This document shows, one piece after another, positions 1 to 23,169 of a DNA stretch of 24,000 nt. The position numbers and the translations under genes were made by a program. The notes under the pieces are model-generated. The model searched no databases and had not been told where the DNA came from. It was given only the letters and a program-made list of their open reading frames with translations. The DNA is from Rhodobacterales bacterium (GTDB taxonomy: Bacteria > Pseudomonadota > Alphaproteobacteria > Rhodobacterales > CAZPXZ01). Location: the NCBI GenBank assembly GCA_965222665.1, contig CBDCUM010000012.1, positions 303,253 to 327,252 of the forward strand, read 5' to 3'. The stretch's first letter is position 1, and every line of letters starts with the position of its first letter.

Positions 1-128
1 GATCTAGAACCTAACTCATTGATCAGTATAACTCTTATCGGTTTTTGGGCAAGCACCAATTATCAACCCGGAGTCGAGAATCCGGTAGTCGTCATCTAAC
101 GGTCAACCTTCTTGCCATCTGCGCCGCT

Positions 129-731
129 TCATCCGGCACGGAGAAAGGCTCCCGATTTTCGGAATTCCGCCGGGCTCCGGAGGCAAAGCCAAGCGCGCAA
201 TTCGCGCCGCCAGATGAAGCCGCCTGGACTTCTGCCTCTGGCTGAACCCGACGAACCGGTCAGCCCCGCGGCCAATGCCTCGCGTTCGCCTGTCGTCCGG
301 CCAGGCCAACCCAAATCCCGCCGAACGCGGCCACGCGCCGCGGACGCCGGCCGGAATCCGGAAAGCCGGGATCGTCGCCCTCGTCGATCGGCCAGGAGCC
401 CGCGCAGGCCGGCGGTCACCGGTTCCGGCGTGTCGGGGTCCGAACTCGATTTGTGCTCGATGGGGGCCACCGCATTCGGCTTGTCCAGGGTTCCGCCAAC
501 CAGGTACACCTTGTTCGCGCGGAGCTGCCTGAGGTTGCCGTGCACCAGCGCCGGGTCGATCGGGCGTGCGGGCTCGCCCGTCAGCATCCAGCGCAGCGCC
601 TTCGGCCAATGGGCGTGGATCAGCGCGTTGGCGCGCTCGCTGTCGCTGAGGATCGCACGGAAGAATGCGTCATGGCAGTGGCGCGTGAAGGCGCGGAGTG
701 CGCTTGCATCGGGCTGGTGCATCGCCGGCAT
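129..731 (-). pseudogene. Rpn/YhgA-like recombination-promoting nuclease / putative transposase, decayed copy 1
   Basis: Minus-strand frame of track ORF 129..1049, read from ATG 731: MPAMHQPDASALRAFTRHCHDAFFRAILSDSERANALIHAHWPKAL...NAVAPIEHKSSSDPDTPEPVTAGLRGLL. This fits the conserved N-terminal core of the Rpn/YhgA PD-(D/E)XK family (HDxxF..S.. then EHxSxxD). Similarity is lost after about residue 95. A possibly homologous segment (IPAF..GAWPRS) appears in a second frame (track 103..609). The locus is about 200 codons, against about 300 for intact family members. It is called as decayed on those grounds. Confidence 0.45.
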
Positions 732-839
732 GGCTCCTGGCTGCGATCGGGAATGCCCTGGCGGCGGAAGGCGCCCGGGTCGCGTCGAGCCTTGCGGCCC
801 GATCCGGGCGGCGCAACACGGGAGCGGCCCCATTCCGCC

Positions 840-852
840 GGGGGGGGGGGGG
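840..852. repeat. G13 homopolymer tract
   Basis: Read directly: ...ccgcc then 13 g then ttcgg. It lies in the ~0.8-kb spacer between the divergent Rpn-like start (731) and the autotransporter start (1545). Confidence 0.9.
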
Positions 853-1544
853 TTCGGTGAACGTTGCCGGTACGGCCTCCGGTTGCACGCCGAACGAACG
901 GGGAACACGCGGAATTGCCGGCATGGGAAGAAATCTCCGGAATTCGGTACCAAAAATGACGCGCAAAGGGACGCTGAGGCGCCGACCCCCGGGTTCCCGT
1001 GCAGAACCCGGGGGACCGAATCGTGGCGTTGCGACGCGAATCGGGACATGGCGCGGACTCGGCGGAGCCACTCGTCGAGCCATCAATACAACGAAGTCGA
1101 ACCACGAGTCACTGAAATCCAATCACCTCGCCAACCGGGTCTTCCCGGTGGTCGAGGGTGTCTGTGTCGGCGTCAAAGTGGCATGGCCCGAGTTCGAGGA
1201 CGCTCCCGACCTCATCAAATCCATCAGAAGCCGAAAACGGGCTGCGACAGAGGTCTTCAACAGGAAACCCTCTACGAGCAATTAGTGGATTCTGTATCAC
1301 CGTATTATCGGAAGGCGAGACAAGCGGTCCGACCAACCAGCAAGCGTTACCAGTCGCTCAACGAGCCGTGCCGTGCCGGGGATCGGAATTCCGATCCCGC
1401 AGAGTCTTGCAACTGCTTCACTCGACGGGATATTTGATCGCAGATCCGGGAGACTGCGTGTCGCTTGACATGGCGCTCCGGAACATGTTCCAATCCATGT
1501 GTCGGCAGATAAAATGAATACGATAGATAGGTTGAATTAATTAT

Positions 1545-4335
1545 ATGTGTGCTGTACGCAATGCAACGGTGTCGCAGATGTCTTGCGTGCACGCTGTCTT
1601 CGGACAGGAGCTTGCGGACGCCGGGCAGGGACGTTGGGTTCGACGGTTTGCGGGTGCGGCCTTGCCCGGGCGGGTCCGGCTGACAGCGGCGCTCGCTGTT
1701 GCCGTCCTGGGCGCATTCAGCGCCCCGGCGCTTGCGCAGAACTCCACCGGCGCGCCCGCGATTTCGGGCACCGCACGGGTCGGCGAAACCCTGACCGCCA
1801 CGACGGGCTCCATCGCGGACCCGGACGGTCTGCCGAACACATTCATCTATCAGTGGATACGGGTCGATGCGGGGGTCGGGACCGACATCGACAACGAGAC
1901 CTTGGCCACCTACACGCTCGTCGCTGCCGACGGGGGCAAGAAGGTCAAGGTGCGGGTGTCCTTCACCGATGATGCGAACAACGCGGAATCGCGGACGAGC
2001 GGCGCCTACCCGTCGAGCGGCGCCGTCGTCGTACCGCCGGGCTCGCCCGCGAGCCTGACGGCCGAGACGGGCGACGGGCGGGTGCGGCTGGTCTGGGAGG
2101 AGCCTGCGGACGAGAATAGTCCGGACGGCTACCAAATCCGCCATGCCGCGGGCGCCTCGGTGCCGGCGGAGATGGGCTGGACCGAAACAGCCAGTGTCGA
2201 GATATTGACCGCACTGGTCTCGGGACTCACGAACGGCACGGCTCATACCTTCGAGGTGCGGGCGGTCCGTGGCAACGTACCGGGTCCACCGGCCAGGGTG
2301 TCGGCAACGCCGGTGGCGGCCGTGTGCAGCGCACCCGCCCTCGGCACCAGACGGGAAGTCTGGTCCGGCACGATGACGGTGGGGCACGATTTTCAAACAC
2401 AGGTGGGCGCTTACGGTCTAGGCGAAAATGATGCGGGGTTCGAGGCAGGAGAGTTTGGCAGCCTGTCCGTAGCACCCCACTTTTCGATCGGCGCCACGCG
2501 CTACGACATAAGCGAGATGATTGCCGATATCCGCCGCGATGGCGAGAGGAGGTTTATGTACCTCACCTTCTCCAACAGGCTGCCGAATCCGGTCAAGGCC
2601 GCGCTCCGGCTTCATTCCTGCGGCGAAACACGGGATGTCAGCAGCAGTAGTTTTGCTAATGCTCCTGGTGGTCGGTCGCGATATAGATGGATTGGGCGAT
2701 CGCTCGCTATCGACTTCTCCCTCTACCCCACGCGCGAGATTGCGCTGAGCCTGCCGGCGAACAACGCCGCGACGGGGGAGCCGGCGATCGTGAGCGACAT
2801 CGCCGACAAGGCGCATGTCGGCCGGACGCTGACCGCCTCGGCGGGCACGGTGGCGGATGACGACGGGCTGCCGTCCGCGCTGACCTACCAGTGGTACCGA
2901 GTGGACGGCAGCAACAGCGTCGAAACGGAGATAGGCAGCGCCACCACATACACGCCGACCGCGGCCGATATCGGCCACACGCTCAAGGTGAAGGCGCTCT
3001 TCCAGGACGATCTCGGCGGGGTGGAAGAGCGCGAGAGCGTGGAGACCCCGACGGTCGAGCAGCCGACCCTGACGATCGCGGAGGCGAGCGCGACCGAGGG
3101 CAGTGCGCTGAGCTTCGCCGTGACGCTCTCGCCGGCGACCGACCGGCCGGTGACCGTCAACTGGGCGGTCTCGACCTCCGGCGGGAACACCGCCTCGGCG
3201 AACGACCTTTCCGGGACGACGAGCGGGTCGCTCACATTTGCCGCGAACGAAACCTCGAAGACAATTACGGTGAGCACCGTCCAGGACGAGGTCTACGAGG
3301 GGAACGAGACCTTCACGGTGACGCTCTCCGGCCCGGCCAGCGCCGTGCTCGGAACGGCGAGCGTGGCCACCGGTACGATCACCAACGACGAGGCATTACC
3401 GACGATGACTCTGGTGCTGGCCGACGACACGATCCGGGAGTCGGACGACCCGGACCAGCCGGGATACCAGCACCGGACCACGGTGACGGCGACCCTGGAC
3501 ATCGCAATCGAAGGGGACTTGAGGATCAGCGTCGCAAGCGGGCCTGCATTGCGAATCGGCATCCCCGCCGACTTGGAAAGATCCAGACTGACCATCCGGG
3601 CGGGGCAGAAGACGAGCGAGACACTGGGTGTGGTGCCCTTGGACAACACTGTCGATGAGCCGGACCGGATGGTGGTGTTAGAGGCGACTAGCAATTGGGT
3701 AAATTCTGGCTATCTGGACCAAACCACTTATCCTCAGGCGCCGAACCCTTCCCTCACCATAATCGACGATGACGAAGCGCCGACGGTGACACTGGCGCTC
3801 TCTCCGGCGTCGATCCGCGAGTCGGACGACGCCGGCACGGCGGGTATCGACGATCATGTCGGCACGGTGACGGCGAGTCTCTCCCATCCGTCGAGCGAGG
3901 CGACGACGGTGACGGTGTCGGCGGCGGCGGTCGGCGCGGCGGTTTCCGGCGATTTCACGCTGAGCGGCAACAGGGTGCTCACCATCCCGGCCCGGCAGAC
4001 GCGGAGCACCGGGACGGTGACGGTGAGCGCCAACGACAACAATGTCGACGCGGCGGACAAGCAGGTGACGGTTTCCGGCGCGGCAGCGAACACCCAGGGC
4101 ATTGCGGGCGACCCGCCCGATCAGACGCTGGCGATCCGCGACGACGAGGAGGCGCCCCGGGTGGCGCTGGTGCTGGGCGCGGGCTCGATCAGCGAGAATG
4201 CCGGATCGACGACGGTGAAGGCGACGATCCCCTACCCGTCGAGCCACGAGACCGTCGTGACGATCTCGGCGGCGCCCGGGGACTTCACGGCAAGCGGGAC
4301 GCTGACGATCCCGGCGGGGCAGACCGAGAGCCCGA
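1545..4335 (+). CDS. Autotransporter passenger region (exon 1): signal peptide, Ig-like repeats, FN3, unassigned module, Calx-beta-like repeats
   Basis: Track ORF 1545..4406. It has a signal peptide (RVRLTAALAVAVLGAFSAPALA/QN). It has two Ig-like repeats (G.PAI...VG.TLTA..G..aD.DGLP...YQW.RVD) and one FN3-like module (PGSPASLTAETGDGRVRLVWEEP...TFEVRAVRG). An unassigned ~150-aa module follows, then four ~110-aa repeats. The first repeat is a typical Calx-beta (LTIAEASATEGSALSFAVTLS..VTVNWAV..TITVSTVQDEVYEGNETFTVTLS). Family-like sequence stops at ...TLTIPAGQTESP (about 4334). The last ~24 codons of the track ORF are read-through of intron RNA. The true start may be ATG 1545 or ATG 1578, and an AT-rich patch at 1505-1550 sits just upstream. 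Confidence 0.8.
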
Positions 4336-5098
4336 GTGCGCCGTGGAAAGGCGCGTTTTCCTGGTGGGTGCGAATCCCACCCAGCAACTGTCCTTCCGGC
4401 TGGTAGCGGCCGGAGCGGTTCGTGGAGGTAACGACATGGACTGAAGCACTCCGGAGAGAAGGGCTGCGTTGAGCAGCTCAGCGACCATGCAGGCCGGAGC
4501 GTGAAGCGAACGCCGAGCAGGCCTCGAAACAGGCAACGCGGGGGCCGACCCTCCTTGGGTTAGGGGAAGGCCGATGGCGGTTTGGGAAGAGAAGCGACAC
4601 ATGCACCAGACCGCGCCCGCCGGGGTAGTGGCGCCAGCATGCATGGAAGATGGAAGACGCGGCAACACGGGAAGCCCTGTCGGTGATGTGCACGCATCAA
4701 CCGGACCCCCGTGAGGGGCAGGCTGGGCCGGCAGGGTGGCGGAGGGGTCCGTACTACTGGCGACGCCGAGTAATACCGGTCGAGGAAAGGGACCCCAGGT
4801 GAGGAAGGATGTTGAAGGGCGACAGGTATCGGGAGTGGCATGGCCTATTACCCCGGAGAATGCCGGAGAGCCTGGACGCATCACATGCGGAAGTGAAGGG
4901 CGGGTCCCCGGCGGCGGTGGTTTCTCCGGCGTCCGAGGTCTCGGACCATCAAGGCGTCGACAGGCTTGCTGGCAGGCGAGGCCGCAGCCACAGTCAAGGC
5001 GGGAGCCGTGCAGCTCCTCGCGGCCGAACCCATGCGGCCAAGACCCTTGCTGTTGCTGGAACTCGTCGCCCGTGTGCGAAGTGCATGATCCCACTGGA

Positions 5099-5131
5099 GA
5101 GCCCGGTGCCGGAAATCGGCACGCCGGGTTC
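5099..5131 (+). ncRNA. Group II intron domain V (catalytic hairpin)
   Basis: Sequence GAGCCCGGU-GCCG-GAAAU-CGGC-AC-GCCGGGUUC. The 9-bp lower helix opens with the A-G-C catalytic triad (A5100-U5130, G5101.U5129, C5102-G5128). A 2-nt AC bulge lies at 5121-5122, followed by a 4-bp upper helix and a GAAA-type loop. At 33 nt it fits the general group II domain V consensus of about 34 nt. Confidence 0.85.
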
Positions 5132-5214
5132 GGGGAGCGGGGGACTGGAAACGTAGCCAAGGGAGCCGGACTGAGGCCCGTCGCGAAAGCGCCGGAACTG
5201 CCACCGGACCCTAC
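5132..5214 (+). ncRNA. Group II intron domain VI candidate with bulged branch-point A5208
   Basis: Hand fold only. G5132-G5135 pair with C5209-U5212 (4-bp basal helix). A5208 is unpaired and lies 7 nt from the end. Further pairs are C5138-G5140 with C5204-G5206 and G5142-G5143 with C5201-C5202. There is an internal CGC-GAAA-GCG hairpin (5182-5191), and the 3' terminus is UAC. Confidence 0.45.
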
Positions 5215-6826
5215 CGCGGGCGCGCCAGCCCCCGACTCTACCATCGTCAACTCCGGCCCGATACCGGAGGCGTGGATTGTGCGGTTCGGGCGCACCGTGG
5301 CCGAGCAGGCGATGGAAGCGGTGGAGGCGCGCTTCGAGGCGCCGCGCGTACCGGGCCTCGCGGGGAGTCTCGCGGGCCAAGTCGTCACCGGCTTCGGGGT
5401 GCGCGCGGATGGGGAGGCGCAAGACGCGCGCGAGGGGCTGGATGGGTTCGCCGCGTGGCTCGGAGGCAAGGACGGGCATGCCGGGGCGTCGGAATCCCGG
5501 CCGCTCACCGGGCGCGAGGTGCTGGCGGGCTCGACGTTTGCGCTGACCGGCGGGACGGCGGAGTCGGGGCTTGCGTCGATCTGGGGTCGGGGCGCGGTCA
5601 CTCGCTTCGATGGTCGCGACGGCGCGCTCAGCCTCGACGGCGAGGTGGCGAGCGGGATGCTGGGGGCGGACTGGACGAGGGACCGAGTGCTCGCGGGCCT
5701 CATGCTCTCGCATTCCCGGGGCAAGGGCGGTTATCGGGGTAACTCGGAAATGAGCATGGGGTCGGTCGAATCGACGCTGACCGCGCTTTTCCCTTACGGG
5801 CGTTATGCGCTGTCGGAGCGGGTCTCGGTGTGGGGGATCGCCGGAGTGGGCGAGGGGACGCTGACGCTCACTCCCGGGGGCGCGACGCCGATGCGCCCCG
5901 ACATGGCCTTCCTGATGGGGGCGGTTGGCGTGCGCGGCATACTCTTCGACGGCGCCGGCGGGTGGCCGACTCTGGCTGCGAAATCCGACGCGTTTGCCGT
6001 GCGTACGTGCACCGATGGGGTGTCGGCGAGCCCCAGCCTCGGGGCGTCGCAGGGCGACGTGACGCGCGTGCGTTTCGCGCTGGAGGGCTCGCAGCCCCTG
6101 CGCCTCTGGGGCGATGTGGTGCTGACGCCGGGTCTGGAACTCGGCGTGCGCCACGACGGGGGCGATGCGGAGACCGGCTTCGGGGCCGACATCGGGGCGG
6201 GTCTTGCGCTCTCGGCCCCGTCGCAGGGGGTCTCCGCGGATCTCCGCGCGCGCGGTCTCCTGACTCACGAGGCGGGGAGCATGCGCGAGCAGGGCGTCTC
6301 CGGCACGTTTGCCTTCGATCCGGCGCCCGACAGCGACCGGGGGATCTCGCTCAGCCTCTCGCAGACGGTTGGGTCACAGGCGTCGGGCGGGGCGGACGCA
6401 CTGTTTGAGCGCCCGACACTTGCCGGAATCGGCGCGGAACAGGACGAGGGGCCGCTCGCGCGGCGCTTCGAAGCGCGGCTCGGCTACGGGCTCGGCGTGT
6501 TCGACGATCGCTGGACGGCGACGCCGGAGATCGGGCTCGGGCTCTCTGGCAGCGATCGCGATGTTCGCTTCGGCGCGCGCCTCACCGAGCGGGTGGCGGC
6601 GGGGCTCGCCTTCGAGCTCGGGGTGGAGGCCTCGCTGCGCCAGAGCGGGGACGGCGCCGCGAACCCCGAGCACGGGCTCGGGGTCGACCTAGGCTGGCGG
6701 CTCGCGGGGGCGCGCACGAGCCATCGGTCGTTCGAGATGGGCATCGACGCGATGCGCCTCGACACCGCGAACGACGACGCATCACGGCAGGATCGCATCG
6801 GGCTCAAGCTGAGCGTGCACTGGTGA
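5215..6826 (+). CDS. Autotransporter linker plus outer-membrane beta-barrel translocator domain (exon 2; codon frame 5216..6826)
   Basis: This is the 3' part of track ORF 4736..6826. It has a linker helix (...PIPEAWIVRFGRTVAEQAMEAVEARF) and the classic junction motif (SIWGRGAVTRFDGRDGALSLDGEVASGMLGADW). Long runs of alternating beta-strand-like sequence follow, ending in a terminal aromatic (...IGLKLSVHW). The first ~160 codons of the track ORF are intron RNA, not protein. Confidence 0.8.
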
Positions 6827-7307: not shown

Positions 7308-7313
7308 GCTAAG
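7308..7313. repeat. Target-site duplication GCTAAG (left)
   Basis: GCTAAG directly abuts IR-L, and an identical hexamer abuts IR-R at 11753-11758. Confidence 0.8.
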
Positions 7314-7334
7314 CTGAAGTTCTGACGGGATTTT
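7314..7334. repeat. IS left terminal inverted repeat
   Basis: CTGAAGTTCTGACGGGATTTT. The first 12 nt are identical to the reverse complement of the right end, followed by GGG and ATTTT blocks with one mismatch and one indel. Confidence 0.8.
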
Positions 7335-7391
7335 GGGTAAAATGCGTGATATGGCAATCAATTGCGCAATTTCGGAAATCGGATTTTCTGC

Positions 7392-7865
7392 CTACATTTT
7401 GCGTTCGCCCGGGTTGTGCTGTTGTTTTGGGCGGCGAATGGTTTCCAGCAACTCTATCGCCTTTGTTTGGGATTTGGTCGGCGTTGTGTCCATATCGAAG
7501 GTTTCGGGCGCGGGATTGGTACCCGGCTGGCCGCGCTGGATCCTGCATGTATTTCGGGTAATGGTTTCCAGGCTTTCGATCAGGGTTCGGAAGCAGTGGG
7601 TTTCGGAGCCATCCTCGAGCCATCCTGCGGCCTTGCGTTTGGCGCGCTGCGAGCGTTCGGCCGGAGCGACGGGATCGCGGGTGCGGGTGATTTCCTCGAG
7701 TTCCGGATCGGAGAACAACCGGTCCCGCCAGACTTCCCTCATATGACATTCGACATAGTACGCGAGCGTGCACAAGAAGATGTGGGCGCGCACCCGTTGC
7801 GCGATGCGATGGTAGATCGGCCGAACGTGCAGGTTGACCGTCTTCATGGATCGAAATGCGCGCTC
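7392..7865 (-). pseudogene. IS1634-family transposase, C-terminal fragment
   Basis: Track ORF 7392..7901 (-). (V)ERAFRSMKTVNLHVRPIYHRIAQRVRAHIFLCTLAYYVECHMREVW... continues the transposase exactly where the other fragment stops. The family motif is YK.L..VE.aFR.lK..L..RPi.H....R..aH....LAY. Confidence 0.8.
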
Positions 7866-7868
7866 GAC
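7863..7868. repeat. Left junction core (CTCGAC), putative attL crossover region
   Basis: CTC-GAC on the left and CTC-CAC on the right (10247-10252). The shared CTC is the likely crossover region for a serine recombinase, which would produce no true target duplication. Confidence 0.45.
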
Positions 7869-7894
7869 TATATGAACGCATACCCGCCAAAGAG

Positions 7895-7923
7895 TTGACA
7901 AATGAGGAAATCCCGCCTATTCT
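7895..7923 (+). promoter_or_regulatory. Sigma70-like promoter inside the left end of the recombinase element
   Basis: TTGACA (7895-7900), a 17-nt spacer, then TATTCT (7918-7923), reading toward the recombinase. It would give a ~150-160-nt leader that contains the perfect hairpin GGCGGA-GGCU-UCCGCC (about 8014-8029). Confidence 0.45.
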
Positions 7924-8082
7924 GGGCGTTGAGGCATTGTTGCAGCTGTCGAACTGGTATGCGCTCAGGAAAGCAAGCGGCGAACGCGATCGATGCGGCG
8001 ATCTGGCGGAGGCTTCCGCCGGAGAGGAAGCGCCGGATTGTGCTTCGGATTGCGCATGCGGTTCGGGGTCTGGCGGACAGCC

Positions 8083-10218
8083 ATGAGCAGGATCGCGGAG
8101 AACGGCGGCCCGGTTCGGGAACTTTCCGAAGGGAAGATTCAGACTAGACATCTGGGTCGGAAGGCGGTGGTGTATGTGCGCCAGTCGTCGCCCGGCCAGG
8201 TCGCCCGGCATCGAGAATCGACAGCGCTGCAGTATGATCTGCAGGCACGGGCCCGGCTTCTCGGCTGGGCGGCGGATCGCATCGAAGTGATTGACGAGGA
8301 TCTCGGGCGCACGGCGCGCCCGGGGTCGAGCCGTGCCGGTTTCACGGAACTGGTTGCCGGGGTTGGGCTCGGGCACGTTGGGATCGTGCTCAGTTGGGAA
8401 GTGTCCCGCCTGGCTCGGAACCTGGCGGATTGGGGCCGGATGCTGGAGTTGTGCGGTCAGCGCGACACATTGATCGGCGATTGCGAAGTCGTGTACGATT
8501 TGAGCTGCTTCAATGATCGGTTTATTTTGGGGATCCGTGGCTCGATGTCGGAAGCGGAGCTACACCTGATGCGGCAGCGGCTGCATGCGGGTCAGGAGGC
8601 GAAGGCTTCGCGTGGCGCGCTGCGGTTTGGCCTGCCGCGGGGTTATGTACACGGCCCCGACCAGGAGATTCAGCAGGATCCGGACGAGGAAGTGCGTGCG
8701 TCGGTGCGCCGAGTGTTCGATTTGTTTGCGAAATGCGGTTCCCTGCAGCGGGTTGTGCGGACGCTGGCGGGGGATGGTGAGCAACTTCCCCACCGCGCAC
8801 GGAGTGGACCGGGAAAGGGGGAGGTTGTGTGGGGGCGTCCGAGCGCGGCGACGGTTTACCACATGCTGACCAACCCGGTCTATGCCGGTGCCTACGCATG
8901 GGGGCGGATACGTGGGGCGGCGAGAGGAGACGACGATCGGATTGAAGATCGCTGGCGGTATTTGCTGCGGGATCGTCATCCGGCATACATCAGCTGGGAG
9001 ACGCTGGAACTCAACGTGCAGCAGCTTGCGTCGAACCGCGGGGGGCCGAAGGGGCGCTCACCGGGTATGCTGAGCGGCCGCTTGCGGTGCGGGCGCTGCG
9101 GACGAAGCATGATGGCCGGTTACAACAATGGCGGGCGGTCGTTGCGCTACTCCTGTTTCCGCGGGCGGCTGGATTACGGCGAAGCGAAGTGCCAGTCGTT
9201 CTCCGGGGGTGCGATTGATACGCACGTTTCGCGAGAGATTCTCGGCGCCCTGGCTCCGGCTGCGGTAGAGGCGTCGTTGGCCGCCTTGTCGCACGTGGAG
9301 TCGGAGCGGGCGCGCCAGCACGAGAAGTGGCGGCAGCGGCTTGCGCGGGTGGAACACGGGGTGGAACGCGCCTGGCGCCAGTTCGATGCGACGGATCCGG
9401 GGAACCGGCTGGTGGCGCAGAGCCTCGAGGATCGGTGGGAAGCGGCACTGCGCGCGCAGGCGACGTTGCGCGAGGAGTACGAGCGCTTCTGCGCCGCCCT
9501 CCCCCGCGAACTGACGGAGGACCAGCGCAGGGCCATTCGTGAAGCGGCGGAGGATGTTGCCGGGTTGTGGCAGGGTGGGGGCTTGCCGCCGGCCGATCGG
9601 ATCGACATTCTGCGCCTGCTGGTCGACCGCGTCATCGCGACGGTGGAGGAAGACAGCGAGCAGGTTGCCGTGGAGATTCAGTGGCAGGGCGGGTCCCGGT
9701 CAATCTCCCGGATCCACAGACCCGTCCGCGACTGGCGCCAGATGAGCTGCTTTCCCGAACTGCAGGCGCATGTCCACTCGCTGCGGGAGCAGGGACGTAG
9801 CTACCGCGAGATTGCGGATCAGCTCAATGCGGAGGGCTGGCGGCCGGCCCGCAGGACGGCATTCACGATCCACTCCGTAAAGCGACTGTGCAAGATCATG
9901 GAACCGGTTGAAGAACAGCAGCGGCGTTCGCATCCCCCGCCAACGGATCGGCGCCCAGACGAGTGGACCCTCGAGGAATTATCCGGGAAGCTGAACATTC
10001 CTCTGACCACGCTCTACAACTGGATCCAGAAAGGCATCCTGTCTGCACGACGGTCGGATGCACAACCCTTCAGAGGGCCCCGGCGCTGGCTGATCCAGGC
10101 GAATGAAGTGGAACTCGACAGAATTCGCAAACGGCGGACAGACTGGGAGACCCTGCACAGAGACGGAACGCCGAGGCTCCCCGCAGCAACGCCACCAAGC
10201 CCGACAGCAATGAATTGA
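8083..10218 (+). CDS. Large serine recombinase (711 aa) with extra C-terminal HTH-containing tail
   Basis: Track ORF 7993..10218, with the likely start at ATG 8083 (MSRIAENGG...). It has a resolvase catalytic domain with the nucleophile motif KAVVYVRQSSPGQ (Ser codons 8185-8190) and ..GIVLSWEVSRLARN. It has a recombinase domain (..LPRGY..VYHMLTNPVYAGAYAWGR..) and a Zn-ribbon (RLRCGRCGRSMMAGYNNGGRSLRYSCFRGRLDYGEAKCQSF). An Arg/Glu-rich coiled-coil follows. The tail has two HTH-like segments (GRSYREIADQLNAEGWRPARR..., WTLEELSGKLNIPLTTLYNWIQKGILSARR). Confidence 0.9.
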   Translation: MSRIAENGGPVRELSEGKIQTRHLGRKAVVYVRQSSPGQVARHRESTALQYDLQARARLLGWAADRIEVIDEDLGRTARPGSSRAGFTELVAGVGLGHVGIVLSWEVSRLARNLADWGRMLELCGQRDTLIGDCEVVYDLSCFNDRFILGIRGSMSEAELHLMRQRLHAGQEAKASRGALRFGLPRGYVHGPDQEIQQDPDEEVRASVRRVFDLFAKCGSLQRVVRTLAGDGEQLPHRARSGPGKGEVVWGRPSAATVYHMLTNPVYAGAYAWGRIRGAARGDDDRIEDRWRYLLRDRHPAYISWETLELNVQQLASNRGGPKGRSPGMLSGRLRCGRCGRSMMAGYNNGGRSLRYSCFRGRLDYGEAKCQSFSGGAIDTHVSREILGALAPAAVEASLAALSHVESERARQHEKWRQRLARVEHGVERAWRQFDATDPGNRLVAQSLEDRWEAALRAQATLREEYERFCAALPRELTEDQRRAIREAAEDVAGLWQGGGLPPADRIDILRLLVDRVIATVEEDSEQVAVEIQWQGGSRSISRIHRPVRDWRQMSCFPELQAHVHSLREQGRSYREIADQLNAEGWRPARRTAFTIHSVKRLCKIMEPVEEQQRRSHPPPTDRRPDEWTLEELSGKLNIPLTTLYNWIQKGILSARRSDAQPFRGPRRWLIQANEVELDRIRKRRTDWETLHRDGTPRLPAATPPSPTAMN

Positions 10219-10246
10219 GTTTTAGGAGGCAGTATGTCAAGACCGT

Positions 10247-10252
10247 CTCCAC
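10247..10252. repeat. Right junction core (CTCCAC), putative attR crossover region
   Basis: See the left junction. A CATAC motif lies 9-13 nt inside each end in inverted orientation (7879-7883, and the reverse complement of 10233-10237), giving weak dyad symmetry as expected for an attP-type site. Confidence 0.45.
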
Positions 10253-11566
10253 GCGCGTCAAGGCCTTGTAGATCCTCACACAATTGTCTGCCACCATGTC
10301 TTGTTCCGGAAGCGAGGTGCGGATGACATAGATGCCGTCGAGAGCCGCTTCCCGGGCAATGTTTTCGGCGTTGCGGGAGAAGGCGAAGGACGTATCGTCA
10401 ATCTCGTAGTTCATGTGCTTCTTCATCCGGAACCGGTTGATGGCCTGGCCGACCCGGACGCCGATCTCGGCGCGGCCTCGGAGGGTTCCGCCATCGACGC
10501 TCTTGCGGATGACAGCGAGGTCGGCTTCCGTCGCTTTCAGCAGGGATTCGCGCGTGTGGGCGCGCCGCGCTGCCAGCCGCGGGTTGCGACAGGCCACCAG
10601 CCGCTCACCGGGATAGTCCGGGTGAAGGACCTCGAACAGATTGACTTCGTCGAACCGGGCGACATCAAGAGAGCTGGTGCGGATGAGCTTCTGGATGGTT
10701 GCGCTCTTCAGCGCGGTGATCCAATCCACGCCATCCAGCTTCTTGAGTTCGGTGATGCGGGTCTGCGCGATCATGCCGCGATCGCCCACAATGACCACCC
10801 GCTGGAGGCCGAAGCGCTTCTGCAGGCGCGCGACCTCAGGCAGAAGGGTCTTCGGATCCCCGATATTGCCCGCGTAGACCGAGACGGAAACCGGGCAGCC
10901 GCCGACGTCGCACAGCAGTCCGAAGTTGACCTGAAGCTTTCCCTTCTTGCCGTCCCGGTTGTGCCCGCGGCGGCCAAGCGGGCAGGTCGTCCCTTCGAAG
11001 TAACTTGATGTCAGATCAAACAAAACCAGGCCGCCGTCCCGGAAGTGGCGCCGCGCGAGCTTGCCCTGGATCCGGTTCTGCCGCTTGCCCAGCCAGTCCA
11101 TTGCCGCATAGAGTTCGTCAACCTCGGCGTCGTCGACGCCGAACATCTCGCCCAGCGTGGTGTCTTTCCACCACCGGGTCGTCGCAAGCTTGCTGTGCGG
11201 TCGGATGATGCGGGCGGCAATCATGGCGCAGACCAGGTCGCGCTCCCGGCACGGCTCGGAGCCGATCAGTTCAATCATGCCAAGCCGGTCAAACGCAGCC
11301 GCAATCGCTGCCACCGGTCCATGCTTGCGGGACCGCAGGATCTCAAAGGCGTCACTGGCCTCGACATACTGCTTCCCCGCCAGGCTGCCCCGAACCAATG
11401 CAAGGGTCTCGTCGGAGAGGCTCGAGAGATTCGCCAGCGTTTTCTTCTGAACCTTGCCGCTCTCGTCGCGAAAGGACCGGCGCAGGAGTTTGGAATAGTA
11501 GGTCTTGCCGCCCTGCTTGCTGGCGATAATGGCGACATGCATCGCTGGCATGGCCCCGTGCCTCAT
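10247..11566 (-). pseudogene. IS1634-family transposase, N-terminal ~80% (interrupted)
   Basis: Track ORF 10070..11641 (-). Sequences ...MHVAIIASKQGGKTYYSKLLRRSFRDESGKVQKKTLANLS..., ..VVIVGDRGMIAQTRITELKK.. and ..IYVIRTSLP..CVRIYKALTRVE are typical of IS1634-type transposases. Family similarity stops at the E codon at 10247-10249, and the rest of the track ORF is read-through into the inserted element. The start may be ATG 11566, 11551 or 11542. Confidence 0.8.
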
Positions 11567-11730
11567 ATAGTGTCCACACTCTTTCGATTGCGGTCTGCTC
11601 GGTATTGCCCGCAATATATAGCATATTAAAGCTGGTGTCAACCAGACAATAACGTATCTAGTGCCTACAATACCGAAAAATATTGGCCGTTTTCGGCCGA
11701 AATCACACGTGCTAACAAAGAGTTACGCGG

Positions 11731-11752
11731 AAAATACCCTTCAGAACTTCAG
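11731..11752. repeat. IS right terminal inverted repeat
   Basis: The plus strand reads AAAATACCCTTCAGAACTTCAG, whose reverse complement is CTGAAGTTCTGAAGGGTATTTT. Confidence 0.8.
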
Positions 11753-11758
11753 GCTAAG
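11753..11758. repeat. Target-site duplication GCTAAG (right)
   Basis: GCTAAG directly abuts IR-R, and an identical hexamer abuts IR-L at 7308-7313. Confidence 0.8.
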
Positions 11759-13446: not shown

Positions 13447-14196
13447 TCATGCTGCGAGTTCCTCCAGCAGCTCGTCCGGGACTTCAAAATTTGCGTAGAC
13501 TTCCTGCACGTCGTCATCCTCGGCAAGGGATTCATAGAGCCGGATCACACGGCCGGCGTCCTCGCCGGCTACCGGGACGGTCGCAAGCGGTGACCAGACC
13601 AGCCGCGAGCTGCCGGGGGGCGCCCCGAGTTGCTCCTCTAGTTCCCGGGAAACGTCTACGAGTTCCTCGCGTGTGCAGCGGATGCGATGCCCATCCTCCT
13701 CCGAGACCGCGTCATCGGCGCCAGCCTCGATTGCCGCCTCGAGCACGGCATCCGCGTCGGCCACGTCGGCATCGAACACGATCTCGCCAATGCGTTCGAA
13801 TTGGAAGGTAACGGCCCCGCCTTCCGCCAGCGAGCCGCCATGGCGGTTGAACCGGGAGCGGATGCTCGCGGCAGTGCGGTTGCGGTTGTCCGTCATTGCC
13901 TCCACGACGAAGGCGACGCCACCGGGTCCATACCCTTCGTAGACGATCTCCTGCAGATCGTCGGCTGCGTCGCCCTCCACCTTGGCGATGGCGCGCTCGA
14001 TATTGTCCTTGGGCATGTTCTGCCCCCGTGCCTCCTGCATGGCGAGTCGAAGGCGCGGGTTCGCGGTGGGGTCGATGCCACCAAGCCTTGCGGCCACCAT
14101 GATTTCGCGCGCCAGCCTTGAGAAGACCCGCGTGCGCTTGCGGTCCTGCGCACCCTTCCGGTGCATGATGTTCTTGAATTTCGAATGGCCCGCCAA
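13447..14196 (-). CDS. yebC: YebC/PmpR-family DNA-binding transcriptional regulator
   Basis: (M)AGHSKFKNIMHRKGAQDRKRTRVFSRLAREI...YEGYGPGGVAFVVEAMTDNRNRTA... is full length at 249 aa. It has a TTG start with a GGGAGG Shine-Dalgarno 5 nt upstream. Confidence 0.95.
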   Translation of the reverse strand: MAGHSKFKNIMHRKGAQDRKRTRVFSRLAREIMVAARLGGIDPTANPRLRLAMQEARGQNMPKDNIERAIAKVEGDAADDLQEIVYEGYGPGGVAFVVEAMTDNRNRTAASIRSRFNRHGGSLAEGGAVTFQFERIGEIVFDADVADADAVLEAAIEAGADDAVSEEDGHRIRCTREELVDVSRELEEQLGAPPGSSRLVWSPLATVPVAGEDAGRVIRLYESLAEDDDVQEVYANFEVPDELLEELAA

Positions 14197-16183: not shown

Positions 16184-16421
16184 TGGTGGGTTCCATTTGC
16201 GCCGCAACCTGCTCCAGCCCCGCCGCAATGTCCTCAAGCTGCTCCGCCAGCCGCTCCGTGCGGTCCTGACCGTCATCCCGCGAGGACGGATTGCGCTGTT
16301 CGCGCTCGGTGACCAGTACTTCGAGCCGAGCGACAGCGTCCTGTAGAACCTGGGCGGCTTGCCGCACGCGCCTGGCAGCAGCCAAGGGTTCATTTTCTGG
16401 AGCCGGCCCGTCGCCAATCAT
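16176..16421 (-). CDS. DUF4164 / ZauP-like coiled-coil protein (ZapA-associated)
   Basis: The 81-aa helical, heptad-like product (..AAQVLQDAVARLEVLVTEREQ..RTERLAEQLEDIAAGLEQVAAQ) sits immediately upstream of zapA with an 8-nt ATGCCTGA overlap. This is the arrangement known for the zauP-zapA pair in alphaproteobacteria. Confidence 0.6.
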   Translation of the reverse strand: MIGDGPAPENEPLAAARRVRQAAQVLQDAVARLEVLVTEREQRNPSSRDDGQDRTERLAEQLEDIAAGLEQVAAQMEPTNA

Positions 16422-16710
16422 CCCCGGGGTCCTCCGAGCAGTGCGTTGTTCCGTCCGGTTTCGACAATTCCATTATATCCATGTCGGAGCAAGATACGGG
16501 ACTGCGCCGGATCGCTGCCGCAACTCGTCTGGTGGTCCCGGACGCGCCGTGCGGGTGCCCGGACTTCCATGGTGGCGGCAGGGCTGTAACCTGCGGCTCG
16601 GTCGCGGCGCTGGGTCCCCCTCCAGACGGTTCCGCAGCCGTTTCGTTCTCGACGCAAGGCGGGTGCACCGCTATGATGTCATATCGTCCCGCAGCAGCAG
16701 TGACTTCAGG

Positions 16711-17912
16711 ATGAAGAGGGTTTTCGCCGCAATGGAACTGACAGTCAATCAGCAGGATTTTCTTCGTGCTTCGAATCGCACCCACAACATCGTGGAATCG
16801 AGGCGAATCTTGGAAGTCGAGCGCTGTGTCAGGTTTGAAGCGGCGGAAGGGATGGTCGAATTCCGCACATCCTCCGCCGGACGGGTCATCATCGAGTCCA
16901 TTCCTGCGCTGGTTTCGGAGCCGGGAACCGCTGTCGTCGACAGCGCCGTCCTCAATCAGATCGCCCGACGTCTTCCGAGCGACTCGGAGGTGGCGCTTAG
17001 CACCAGGGCAGGCGCGGAATCCCACGAGCCAGGGGCCGGCGACGGCCTCGACACGCTGGACGACGCTCCGGAGGAGGAGCGGCGACTCCGCCTGCGGGCG
17101 GGCCGGGCCGAATTCTGGCTTTCCCTGGTGGATCCGGACGAGTTTCCCGCAAGCCCGGATGACGAGTACGGGGGCAGTTTCCAGATCTCCGGGGCAGACC
17201 TGAAACTGCTCCTCGACAAGACCCACCGCGCCATACCCTCGTCGGATGACGCCCGTTACTACCTGCAGGGCGTATACCTTCATTCCTCCGCCGAGGACGG
17301 TGAGCAACGATTGACGACCGTAGCGAGCGATTCGCACCGGCTGTCCCGGATGTCGCTTCCGGCCCCGGAGGGGTCGGACCATTTCCCGGGCGTGATCATC
17401 CCGGCGGAAACGGTCGCAACGCTTCGGGCCTGCATCGAGGACGAGGACGCCCTTCGCATCTCCACCGCGCAGAACAAGTTCCGGGTCGCCGGGGAGACCT
17501 TCGCAATCATTTCGCAAGTCGTCGACGCCAAGTTTCCAGACTACAACCGGGTCATACCCCGGGACTGCGATACTCGCCTCGAGTTCGAACGGCGGGCGCT
17601 GGCGACCTGTATCGGCAGGGTCACGGCCATCGCGGGTTCGGAAAGCGAGCGCATTCACTTTAGCGTCGCCGACGGCGTGGCAAATCTGTCAATTCGCTCC
17701 CGGACCGGCCAGTCGGAGGACCGGATCGCCGTGATTTACGCGGGACCCGAAGTCTCGTTCATCCTGCAGGACAAGCATCTCATGGATGCCCTCGCCCAGA
17801 TCGACGGCGACAGCGTGGTTGTGATGATGCGGGACAACCGGTCTGCGTTTCTGGTATCGGAGCGGAGCGGGGACGGCTCAATGACCTGCGTAATCATGCC
17901 GCACAGGGCCTG

Positions 17913-17913
<1 letters not shown>
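16711..17913 (+). CDS. dnaN: DNA polymerase III subunit beta (sliding clamp)
   Basis: MKRVFAAMELTVNQQDFLRAS...LTTVASDSHRLS...VVDAKFPDYNRVIP...VIMPHRA. The start is ATG 16711 or ATG 16732 (MELTV...). The track ORF start at 16291 is upstream read-through. Confidence 0.93.
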
Positions 17914-21523
<3,610 letters not shown>

Positions 21524-21567: not shown

Positions 21568-23169
21568 TCATGTGAGCCGCGGCAGCACCTCATGGGTGTG
21601 GGCGGGCGGCGGCGAGGGCAGGGTCCATTCCAGCGTGTCTGCGCCTTCGCCCCACGGGTTGGCTTCGCACCGCTTGCCACGGTACAGCGTCCATACCATC
21701 ACGCCGATGAAGAACAGGAAGGAGGCACCGGAGAGAAACGCCCCGAGGGAGGAAATATAGTTCCATCCGGCAAAGGCTTCCGGATAGTCGATATAGCGCC
21801 GCGGCATGCCCGCGAGGCCCGAGAAGTGCATCGGGAAGAAGGTGATGTTGACACCGATGAACGTGGTCCAGAAATGCACCTTTCCGGCCCACTCCGGATA
21901 CTGGCGCCCGGTCATCTTTCCGATCCAGTAGTAGATTCCCGCAAAGATGCAGAACACTGCGCCGATCGACATCACGTAGTGGAAATGGGCCACGACATAG
22001 TAGGTGTCGTGCAGAGCCCGGTCGATTCCCGCCTGAGCGAGCACGATGCCGGTGACCCCTCCAAATGTGAACAGGAAGAGGAATCCGATCGCCCAGAGCA
22101 GCGGTGTCCGGAATTCGATCGAGCCGCCCCACATGGTGGCAATCCACGAGAAAATCTTGATTCCCGTCGGCACGGCGATAACCATGGTCGCCAGCATGAA
22201 ATAGGCTTGCGTCGCCGGCCCGATTCCCACTGTGTACATGTGGTGGGCCCACACCACGAAGCCGAGGGCGCCGATCCCGACCATCGCGTACACCATTCCG
22301 AGATAGCCGAAGATTGGCTTCTTGGAGAATGTCGCGATAACGTGGCTGACAATGCCGAAACCGGGAACGACGATGATGTAGACCTCCGGGTGTCCGAAGA
22401 ACCAGAGCAGATGCTGGTAGAGAATCGGGTCTCCGCCACCGGCCGGATCGAAGAATGTGGTGCCGAAATTCCGATCCGTCAGCAGCATTGTCACCGCGCC
22501 GGCGAGAACCGGCAGCGCAAGCAGGATCAGGAACGCTGTCACGAAGATCGACCACGGGAAGAGCGGGGTCTTGTGCAGGGTCATCCCCGGTGCCCGCATG
22601 TTGAGGAAGGTCGTGATCATGTTGATCGCGCCGAGAACCGAGGAAGCGCCGGAAAGGTGGACCGCAAAGATCGCGAAGTCCATCGCCATGCCCGGCGACC
22701 CGTAGGTCGAGAGGGGTGCGTACAGCACCCAGCCTACACCGACGCCGCCGTCGACAAAGACCGCGATGGTGGCGAAGGTCAAGCCGCACAGGTAGAGCCA
22801 GTAGCTCAGGTTGTTGAGCCGCGGGAACGCCATGTCCGGCGCGCCGAGCATCAGCGGCATGAAGTAATTGCCGAAGCCGCCGAAGAGCGCCGGAATCACG
22901 ACGAAGAACATCATCAGGATGCCGTGCCCGGTCGTGAGCACGTTCCAGAGTTGTCCGTCCGGCTGCCCGTCCGCCGTCAGCATGTACTGCACGCCGGGCT
23001 CCATGAGTTCCAGCCGCATGTACATCGAGAAGGCTACAGCGATGACACCTGCGACGAATGCCGTCAGGATGTACAGGACTCCGATGTCCTTGTGGTTGGT
23101 GGAGCAGAACCACCGGGTAAAGAACCCGGTTTCATGCCCGTGCGCGTCGTGCGCAGCCGCTTCTGCCAT
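21568..23169 (-). CDS. ctaD: Cytochrome c oxidase subunit I
   Basis: ...[15 protein letters not shown]...[23 protein letters not shown]...[10 protein letters not shown]...HHMYTVG...[10 protein letters not shown]... The product is 533 aa, with a GGAGGA Shine-Dalgarno upstream. Confidence 0.97.

Follow-up and report, generated by a model that had tools for sequence, protein, structure and literature searches.

A putative cargo-less large serine recombinase element inserted in an IS1634-family transposase gene

The window analysed in this study, a 24,000-nucleotide stretch of a Rhodobacterales bacterium genome (assembly GCA_965222665.1, contig CBDCUM010000012.1, positions 303,253 to 327,252 of the forward strand), carries an insertion sequence (IS) of the IS1634 family whose transposase gene is broken by a 2381-bp insert encoding a large serine recombinase (LSR). 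We hold with considerable confidence that this insert, located at 7866-10246 on the plus strand (placement ambiguous by the 3-bp core CTC), is an autonomous cargo-less LSR mobile element, site-specifically inserted into the transposase gene.

Borders of the insert and empty copies of its target

The host IS occupies 7314-11752 on the minus strand (2058 bp without the insert), and its match to other copies breaks off at 7314 and 11752-11758. Its terminal inverted repeats of 21 bp (7314-7334 and 11732-11752, 86% complementary) are bordered on both sides by the 6-bp target duplication GCTAAG (7308-7313 and 11753-11758). The transposase gene is represented by two minus-strand fragments. The N-terminal one (MPAMHVAII...YKALTRVE, 10247-11551) has as its last codon GAG (10247-10249), specifying a Glu that we take to be the catalytic residue in the Y-R-E-K signature of IS4/IS1634-type DDE transposases, and the C-terminal one ((E)RAFRSMKTVNLHVRPIYH... 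to stop) lies at 7392-7865. The minus-strand open reading frame (ORF) 10070..11641 matches positions 3-386 of NCBIfam NF033559 (IS1634 family transposase, E 6e-72) as well as PF01609 (DDE_Tnp_1), and ORF 7392..7901 matches positions 385-455 of the same profile (E 2e-16), with a score of 243 bits for the host transposase vs. a cutoff of 100. An earlier note on this DNA, made from the sequence alone, had placed the break between ...YKALTRVE and ERAFRSMK..., with deletion of the insert restoring the motif. Indeed, profile positions 386 and 385 adjoin, the empty copies described below agree, and in silico removal of 7866-10246 yields a single open transposase frame. At least 23 intact proteins (P0138-P0160) match the rejoined protein (591-aa version) with 96-98% identity across 98-100% of the length, and some intact transposases share contigs with filled IS copies.

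The attachment sites follow from setting filled IS copies against empty ones. On the plus strand, attL (7840-7890) consists of the IS left arm, the core CTC (7863-7865) and the element left arm (GACTATATGAACGCATACC...), and attR (10222-10272) of the element right arm (..GTATGTCAAGACCGT), the core CTC (10247-10249) and the IS right arm. Uninterrupted IS copies, which had been suggested in the earlier note as the means to define attB, gave the exact site: all nine empty copies (L019-L027) carry GGTTCGAAATGCGCGCTC|CACGCGCGTCAAAGCC at the predicted position, i.e., ..GCGCGCTC|CACGCGCG.., so that the insert is exactly 2381 bp long. One of these nine copies shares a 2.78-Mb contig with a filled copy. 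CTC alone is common to attL, attR and attB, in agreement with what had been noticed at the two junctions, and no target duplication was produced by the insert. The dyad of the reconstructed attP is centred on the TC of the core (11/22 positions in the window, 10/22 in L037 and 13/22 in L039), and judging by the att sequences the crossover probably occurs at this dinucleotide. Exact empty sites, a 3-bp core, the lack of a duplication and an attP dyad on TC together uphold the proposal of conservative site-specific integration at a short core. This core is the antisense of GAG, the Glu codon of the transposase in ..YKALTRV-E-RAFRSMK.., and because it lies at the catalytic Glu codon, the host IS is inactivated.

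Identical junctions recur at 14 loci, which come from at least five assemblies and in part lie on long-read contigs of 2.0-5.0 Mb, and they occupy approximately ten genomic positions (insert identity to the window of 99.5% in L015-L018 and 97.7% in L028-L036). This recurrence bears directly on the suspicion, raised in the earlier note, that the transposase break is an assembly chimera. IS elements are classic misassembly sites, and two of the loci (L017 and L018) are short stand-alone contigs that stop at the right junction; the same junctions on megabase-sized long-read contigs from several samples, in addition to the window, leave an assembly artefact with next to no probability.

Every copy of the IS examined (nine, filled or empty) has a 6-bp duplication of its own. 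The duplications flanking the window copy, L015, L016, L020, L021, L027, L031 and L033 (GCTAAG, TCTAGT, CTTAAG, CTTAAT, TTTAAT, TTTAAG, GTTAGA, TCTAGA) approximate the pattern NYTARN, which indicates that this IS1634-family element has a target preference of its own. As for the insert ends, a binding site at the CATAC/GTATG dyad was discarded as the leading interpretation, since the right-hand copy, GTATG, is the conserved start-codon context of the small ORF described in the next section.

The recombinase gene and a small reading frame split by integration

The LSR gene (8083-10218, plus strand) encodes 711 amino acids (aa), or 741 aa from an alternative upstream ATG at 7993, and ends 28 bp before the element does; the earlier description of a single 711-aa serine recombinase gene with 28 bp after its stop proved accurate, the frame containing all domains of an LSR. 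Residues 58-209 of the 741-aa frame form the N-terminal catalytic domain. It corresponds to the Resolvase domain at 8164-8619 (PF00239, E 6e-18) with the catalytic Ser codon at 8185-8187 (VYVRQSS), and is followed, on the same strand, by a Recombinase domain at 8692-9027 (PF07508, E 6e-20, above cutoff), a zinc ribbon at 9067-9240 (PF13408, Zn_ribbon_recom, E 2.5e-7, above cutoff), a heptad-like Arg/Glu/Leu-rich sequence, and a C-terminal tail with an HTH_17/excisionase-like helix-turn-helix (HTH) motif at 9967-10113 (PF12728, E 1.5e-4, below cutoff). Among PHROG families, the LSR matches phrog_95 (integrase, 7e-55) and phrog_2907 (excisionase, 0.004). Ser35, Arg33, the SRLxR motif and four Cys residues (C336, C339, C358, C370) are invariant in an alignment of 37 homologues. 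A PDB search with the single LSR sequence gave no match; the profile of the 37-sequence alignment alone succeeded, retrieving the SPbeta SprA structure 9dxh (E 4e-17, positions 77-535) and next TnpX, TP901-1 and phiC31, and the C-terminal ~175 aa have no counterpart among solved structures. A search for cargo within the insert revealed no further ORF with a family match. Between the inserts of the window and L015, eight of the ten differences crowd into ~115 bp (9387-9500), in the LSR region past the zinc ribbon; the cluster reflects either hypervariability of this segment or a small patch of recombination.

The view of the insert as a minimal integrase-only selfish element holds with respect to its size (2381 bp) and lack of cargo, and fails in one respect: the insert is not a recombinase alone, as it also contains a conserved small ORF that is split by integration. 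The 3' piece of this ORF (7866-8086, plus strand; ..RLYERIPAKELTNEEIPPILGVEALLQLSNWYALRK..GGQP, stop TGA at 8084-8086) begins at the left end of the element. The 217 bp from this end to the LSR start encode the peptide [IV]x[IV]xxxALLxLAxWxxxR, and the left end contains no start codon for the frame. The 5' piece (10224-10249, plus strand) lies at the opposite end, 3' of the LSR stop, where a strong ribosome-binding site and a start codon (AGGAGGcagtATG at 10224-10236; Shine-Dalgarno (SD) sequence AGGAGG at 10224-10229, ATG at 10234-10236) precede the codons MSRPS(R), which lead into the crossover core. When the element is circularised in silico, the right-end ATG opens a frame of 78 codons through attP.

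Comparison with relatives shows that this arrangement is conserved. By manual inspection, an in-frame ORF spanning the junction is present in 11 lineages (window, L037, L039, L040, L120, L002, L003, L067, L007, L011/L073), for which the expectation by random frames is ~6 per million. The ORF has exactly 78 codons in the window, in L031 (variant B of the insert, see below) and in the relatives with 83% and 74% identical LSRs. The SD sequence and start codon are conserved in L037, L039, L040, L120, L002, L003, L007, L011/L073 and L067, and an SD with a start codon follows the LSR stop in ~16/22 loci. At the other boundary, the stop of the small ORF overlaps the LSR-frame ATG (as ATGA or TGATG) in 24 of 26 motif-bearing loci. 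Among relatives of 35-47% identity, the Ala and Leu codons of the peptide motif show synonymous variation (e.g., TTG/CTT/TTA/CTC). Neither Pfam nor PHROG gave a significant match to the small ORF, and a protein search with it returned a single entry, 99% identical. The same stretch had been taken in the earlier note for a structured leader; this candidate leader RNA was dropped in favour of a coding leader, given the conserved small ORF with its synonymous codon changes and the lack of any Rfam family match in the element.

A sigma-70-like promoter is predicted inside the small ORF (TTGACA-17-TATTCT at 7895-7923, plus strand, 10/12 positions). Two sigma-70-like sites were found in the region vs. 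0.3 expected from shuffles, and both hexamers of the 7895-7923 site are kept in L037 and L039, with a spacer that varies. No terminator-like site was found within the element. In the integrated state, an in-frame ATG of the IS flank at 7856 could act as a substitute start of a 76-aa ORF (7856-8086), an arrangement found alike in the 83% relative; this ATG lies antisense to the conserved Ala-Phe codons of ..ERAF... A different upstream ORF (..VTIxDPxHxxFGxxLEV..) is present at the left ends of a subclade with 35-37% identity (L121, positions 2461-5094 of the record from B. diazoefficiens NK6 pNK6a; L097; L112). It resembles DUF5372 below threshold (E 0.03-0.05), which we treat as a lead only. 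The right end of this subclade has a strong SD and ATG (AAGGAGGcatcATG), for which an in-frame link to the upstream ORF could not be shown.

These features suggest the following putative life cycle. In the integrated state, the small ORF would be without its initiation region, and a basal level of LSR would be provided by the 7895-7923 site together with weak initiation signals of the LSR gene itself. The LSR would excise the element as a non-replicating 2.4-kb circle, whose junction would read right end, core, left end (..GTATGTCAAGACCGTCTCGACTATATGAACGC.. in the window lineage). Joining of the ends would rebuild a two-gene operon, from the right-end ribosome-binding site and ATG, across attP, through the 78-codon ORF to the ATGA overlap with the LSR start, and translational coupling in the circle would boost recombinase synthesis, leading to re-integration into another IS copy. 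In such a site, the element has a target that is multi-copy, strongly conserved and harmless to the cell. The circle-specific expression mechanism has in our estimate a somewhat better than even chance of being correct.

Movement of the insert relative to its host IS

Incongruent insert and backbone trees, along with steps of divergence at the junctions, speak for movement of the insert independent of its host IS. The inserts form two variants: members of variant A differ from each other by at most 12 positions and those of variant B by at most five (17-22 for the outlier L034), and A differs from B by 54-64. By comparison, the backbones of L016 (variant A) and L035 (variant B) are only five differences apart vs. 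23 between L031 and L035 (both variant B); B-type copies occupy backbones 23-26 apart, and the backbones of the B-type copies L031-L033 are 5-9 differences from those of empty copies. The IS backbone of the window is ~2.4% from all others vs. only 0.4-0.5% between its insert and those of L015/L016. Between the window and L015, differences amount to 13/300 in the IS left of the junction, 0/300 at each insert end, 6/300 in the IS to the right and 10/2381 over the whole insert.

These comparisons bear on an alternative in which the recombinase travels as a passenger, one ancestral IS::LSR insertion having given rise to a ~4.4-kb composite that was spread by DDE transposition in trans. In every retrieved copy of the window LSR lineage (14 loci), the insert occupies this one IS, with an unchanged junction. 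Every filled copy retains intact IS ends with its own 6-bp duplication, and intact transposase genes are available in the same genomes. Furthermore, L031 and L033 have identical inserts, with backbones one position apart, at different genomic sites. Identical junctions are, however, equally expected if integration is site-specific and attB is multi-copy. With a single composite lineage, divergence would be equal on both sides of the junction, whereas the observed divergence falls from 2-4% to 0% at the att junctions and the two trees are incongruent; in addition, relatives enter unrelated genes as LSR-only units within one genome. We consider spread as a composite unlikely. Nor is the recombinase a natural passenger of the IS in all copies, a situation that the earlier note had named as telling against its proposal: many intact empty copies accompany the filled ones in the same genomes, and insertion leaves the transposase destroyed. 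Two filled copies per contig are found on ctg117948 (L015 and L032) and on ctg117971 (L033 and L034).

A passive mode of spread was considered as well, in which the insert is a fossil, with no current recombinase activity, that is carried between IS copies by homologous recombination or gene conversion. IS copies do recombine. L029 and L030 have the same left-flank genes, the right flanks of L030 and L032 are 100% identical, and copies that share one flank only point to chromosome rearrangement by homologous recombination between IS copies; also, close LSR variants show 27 non-synonymous vs. 20 synonymous changes (window vs. L031). Conversion tracts, however, would end variably, and the identity tract seen here ends at most 13-45 bp from both att junctions. 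The LSR ORF is intact in all copies except one, and its substitutions vs. L037 number 66/68/180 by codon position, a third-position bias that indicates purifying selection on the LSR over larger distances. No variation is seen at the catalytic Ser or the zinc-ribbon Cys, and the SD, start codon and ATGA overlap are maintained. A fossil insert is quite unlikely on this evidence.

Large serine recombinases usually mobilise phages, integrative and conjugative elements (ICEs), integrative and mobilizable elements (IMEs), SCC elements or cargo-bearing transposons such as Tn4451 and Tn5397, the known units of this kind being cargo carriers, and the best PHROG match of the window LSR is a phage integrase family; both facts would suit an integrase module left behind by a larger prophage, ICE or IME after cargo loss. 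Against such an origin, both ends are precise and the target is restored, and units of the same size and content recur in Planctomycetota, Alphaproteobacteria, Cyanobacteria and Actinomycetota. In the gene tables of 13 loci, the copies have no phage or conjugation genes next to them, and the conserved operon split across both ends argues that these ends belong together. A leftover module is thus a very improbable explanation.

The reading of the insert as an autonomous element with excision-dependent expression has to be weighed against several further points. Some of the spread may have come about by in-trans transposition of a composite or by recombination between IS copies, which is conceivable because no copy of this LSR lineage lies outside this IS. 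The attP-junction pattern ATGTCAAGANNNTCTCGANNNNNNGAANNNNNNNCNGNCAAAGA had 0 matches in JGI metagenome contigs, a weak negative because the window lineage stems from ENA samples, and the left-end motif was present 3' of the LSR stop (a sign of a circle or tandem) in 0/80 contigs. Among 20 loci, no IS copy was seen with the insert in one assembly and without it in a second, and excision is therefore a step that we infer. No recombination directionality factor was identified. For the small ORF, substitutions among close relatives are distributed 14/15/14 by codon position; without a third-position bias, the constraint is seemingly on translation and the central motif and not on the whole peptide. 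Outside this motif, the peptide seems weakly constrained, and its role may be purely translational. Finally, the small ORF is not universal, as more distant subclades carry a weakly DUF5372-like upstream ORF instead.

At one filled locus (L034, 4232-11979), nesting reaches three levels: the IS1634::LSR unit is broken just after the LSR by another IS, with a 740-aa DruA/DDE transposase (7366-9588), and an IS110-type gene, and the right part of IS1634 resumes at 11478. In the window, the IS lies ~4.5 kb from the chromosomal genes dnaN-recF-gyrB (16291-21523; dnaN 16291-17913, recF 17913-19097, gyrB 19094-21523), which places the nested elements close to the replication-origin gene cluster. Other neighbours include a yebC-like gene (13447-14196, minus strand) and the gene for cytochrome oxidase subunit I (21568-23169, minus strand). 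The region upstream of the IS (1545-6826) has two large ORFs. One encodes a 953-aa protein containing Calx-beta/LapA-like repeats; the other, 696 aa long, Gly/Ala-rich and without a Pfam match, overlaps long antisense ORFs, as is typical for high-GC DNA.

Targets, family extent and significance

The position of the break within the host gene is repeated among relatives. The target of an 83%-identical LSR (L037/L038) is another IS1634-family transposase (AYKSLARIE|RAFRSVK, core CTCG), and that of a 74%-identical LSR (L039) is a Tn5-like transposase with a DruA domain (RWSIE|EFFRVLK, core TCGAT). The ~40%-identical LSRs of L002 and L003 are found in IS4 transposases (profile positions 290-292), and further targets are of IS1634/IS4-like (L040, IE|AVFRSLK), IS4-like (L067, YRQRWSAE|IELDIR) and IS701-like type (L120, a plasmid copy of Skermanella rosea, RWTIE|ECFEAAK). 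As read from these motifs, the break in IS4, IS1634, IS701 and Tn5-like targets is again at the catalytic Glu codon. Of the earlier suggestion that the element targets a sequence inside another mobile element, the location within an IS stands, with the refinement that the site is not arbitrary: it is the catalytic Glu codon, a theme kept across the family.

Other conserved motifs are hit as well. Relatives break IstB at Pfam position 198 of 238 (three lineages), an IS481/IS3-type transposase, a tyrosine integrase at Pfam position 145 of 172 (two copies in an Isosphaeraceae metagenome-assembled genome, MAG) and a DUF1559 gene at its prepilin-like N-terminal motif. In a Mariniblastus MAG, three copies with only 2.6 kb in common, at 99.9% identity, are located in two IstB genes and one DUF1559 gene, and all three share the target GC(C/G)GTTCAGCA(A/G)GTG with the core TTCAG. 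A survey of 140 element-adjoining peptides from 80 further metagenomic loci (L040-L119) assigned these flanks to IS481 (10), group II intron reverse transcriptase (RT) (9), IS630 (8), IS701 (7), ISNCY (5), IstB (4), IS3 (4), IS21 (3), IS4 (3) and IS5 (2), so that the matched families are almost all mobile-element proteins. The motif W-x-[ILVMA]-[ED] occurs within 40-45 residues of the element-proximal end in 14/140 flank peptides vs. 0/94 in the distal control. At L022, L023 and L024 (5845-7776), a different 734-aa LSR with an HTH_17 tail adjoins a truncated 220-aa RVT_1 ORF; together with the nine group II intron RT flanks of the survey, this suggests that LSR mini-elements may also sit in group II intron RT genes. 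The genome of L032 contains a second LSR lineage (1-3190; 724/718 aa, 74% identical) in a Tn5-like DruA transposase, also represented by L039 (5001-9046); of the ~740 aa of the intact transposase, 495 aa are left in L032 and 683 aa in L039. In this one host, two IS families have been partitioned between two related LSR elements.

Relatives with 35-83% identity are LSR-only units of 2.4-2.9 kb, multi-copy in some genomes. Many homologues lie on contigs of their own with a length of 2.3-2.7 kb, as is usual for repeats of that size, in agreement with an autonomous unit. More than 7900 homologues are found at E <= 1e-20, LSRs from beyond this family being part of the count. Among plasmids, relatives are present in 507 records (Rhizobium, Sinorhizobium, Bradyrhizobium, Mesorhizobium, Azospirillum, Streptomyces, cyanobacteria), the nearest plasmid-borne ones being from Rhodospirillales. 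Cultured carriers include Skermanella rosea KEMB 2255-458 (plasmid pSR-1, LSR gene at 517038-519167), Bradyrhizobium diazoefficiens NK6 (pNK6a, NK6_a_152) and Rhizobium sp. T1470, one plasmid of which has relatives in eight places. The database labels of these plasmid genes read "recombinase family protein" and, in one case, "transposase". Full-text literature searches brought up no account of LSR elements without cargo, nor of transposase catalytic codons as targets; together with such generic labels, this makes the impression of a poorly described class appear right. The chemistry and the enzyme class are already known; cargo-less LSR elements at transposase catalytic codons appear to be undescribed.

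A side-by-side comparison with established systems reveals partial likeness to several of them. As in the clostridial transposons Tn4451/Tn4453 (TnpX) and Tn5397 (TndX), where one LSR excises a non-replicating circle that re-integrates at a 2-bp overlap, a single recombinase may account for the whole cycle; TnpX performs excision and integration without a directionality factor (PMC5704250). The logic of expression turned on by excision would likewise be shared with Tn4451, whose circle junction forms a promoter for tnpX according to Lyras & Rood (2000), as that work is cited in PMC13023037. The circle of the window element would rebuild a translated ORF coupled to the recombinase and not a promoter alone. 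Tn4451 and Tn5397 differ further in their length of 6-21 kb, in their cargo (catP, a mobilisation gene, tet(M), conjugation genes), which the window element lacks, and in their use of many GA-containing sites as opposed to a specific transposase codon. The TndX-like multi-targeting LSR clade typically has DUF4368 (PMC10083194), whereas a Pfam scan of the window LSR gave no match to this domain at E up to 0.01.

The IS607 family comprises small serine-recombinase elements with a circular intermediate, no inverted-repeat DDE ends and no target duplication (PMC4058570). The window element is similar in its IS-like size, use of a serine recombinase and lack of target duplication. It differs in that TnpA of IS607 is small, with an N-terminal HTH and a C-terminal catalytic domain, has minimal specificity and is usually accompanied by TnpB, whereas the window protein is a 711-aa canonical LSR with a specific target. 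To our knowledge, IS607 is the sole recognised serine-recombinase IS family. By the operational definition of an IS (<3 kb, mobility functions only, multi-copy), the window element has the size, the lack of cargo and the multi-copy state of an IS.

With phage serine integrases (phiC31, Bxb1, TP901-1, SPbeta SprA), the window LSR shares the domain architecture and the recombination of attP with attB at a central dinucleotide within imperfect dyads. Those enzymes serve genomes of 40-130 kb, need a separate directionality factor for excision and hit single-copy host genes, and the window LSR is distinguished by its extra ~175-aa C-terminal tail with the excisionase-like HTH. Joined ends turn on the recombinase gene in the case of Pjunc of IS911/IS30/IS21-type IS, and end joining has the same effect for Pcirc of ICEclc and P3'end of ICEKp1. 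The latter two are described in PMC13023037. Unlike all of these, which assemble or bring in a promoter, the window element would join a ribosome-binding site and a start codon to a decapitated leader ORF. A specific target within a gene of another mobile element is also known for serine-recombinase IMEs inside ICE genes, e.g., IME_Sco1050 in traG of Tn5252-like ICEs (PMC5704250). Such IMEs carry replication, mobilisation or toxin-antitoxin cargo, belong to Firmicutes and have no reported catalytic-codon targeting.

Overall, the evidence leans slightly towards a large, broad and unnamed family of cargo-less LSR hyperparasites, which would home to the most highly conserved codons, catalytic or within other motifs, of genes for DDE transposases, for IstB and tyrosine integrases and perhaps for group II intron RT, would inactivate their hosts and use the copies of these hosts as safe, horizontally travelling landing pads, and would harbour a gene that is split by integration and rebuilt across attP, making recombinase translation conditional on excision. 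If this is true, the family has thousands of members, each a natural LSR with its attP and attB pair. Since the elements are very small and their two junctions can be read, a matched set of LSR, attP and attB is available from each copy; such sets are the raw material wanted for genome-engineering integrases. Such a family would also represent a second serine-recombinase route to IS-like mobility besides IS607, based on canonical LSRs and hidden in databases, and the attP-spanning ORF would be a compact mechanism tying recombinase synthesis to the excised state. For the biology of the host genomes, a mobile element that parasitises others at a catalytic codon, each insertion killing a transposase, would bear on the control of genomic IS load.

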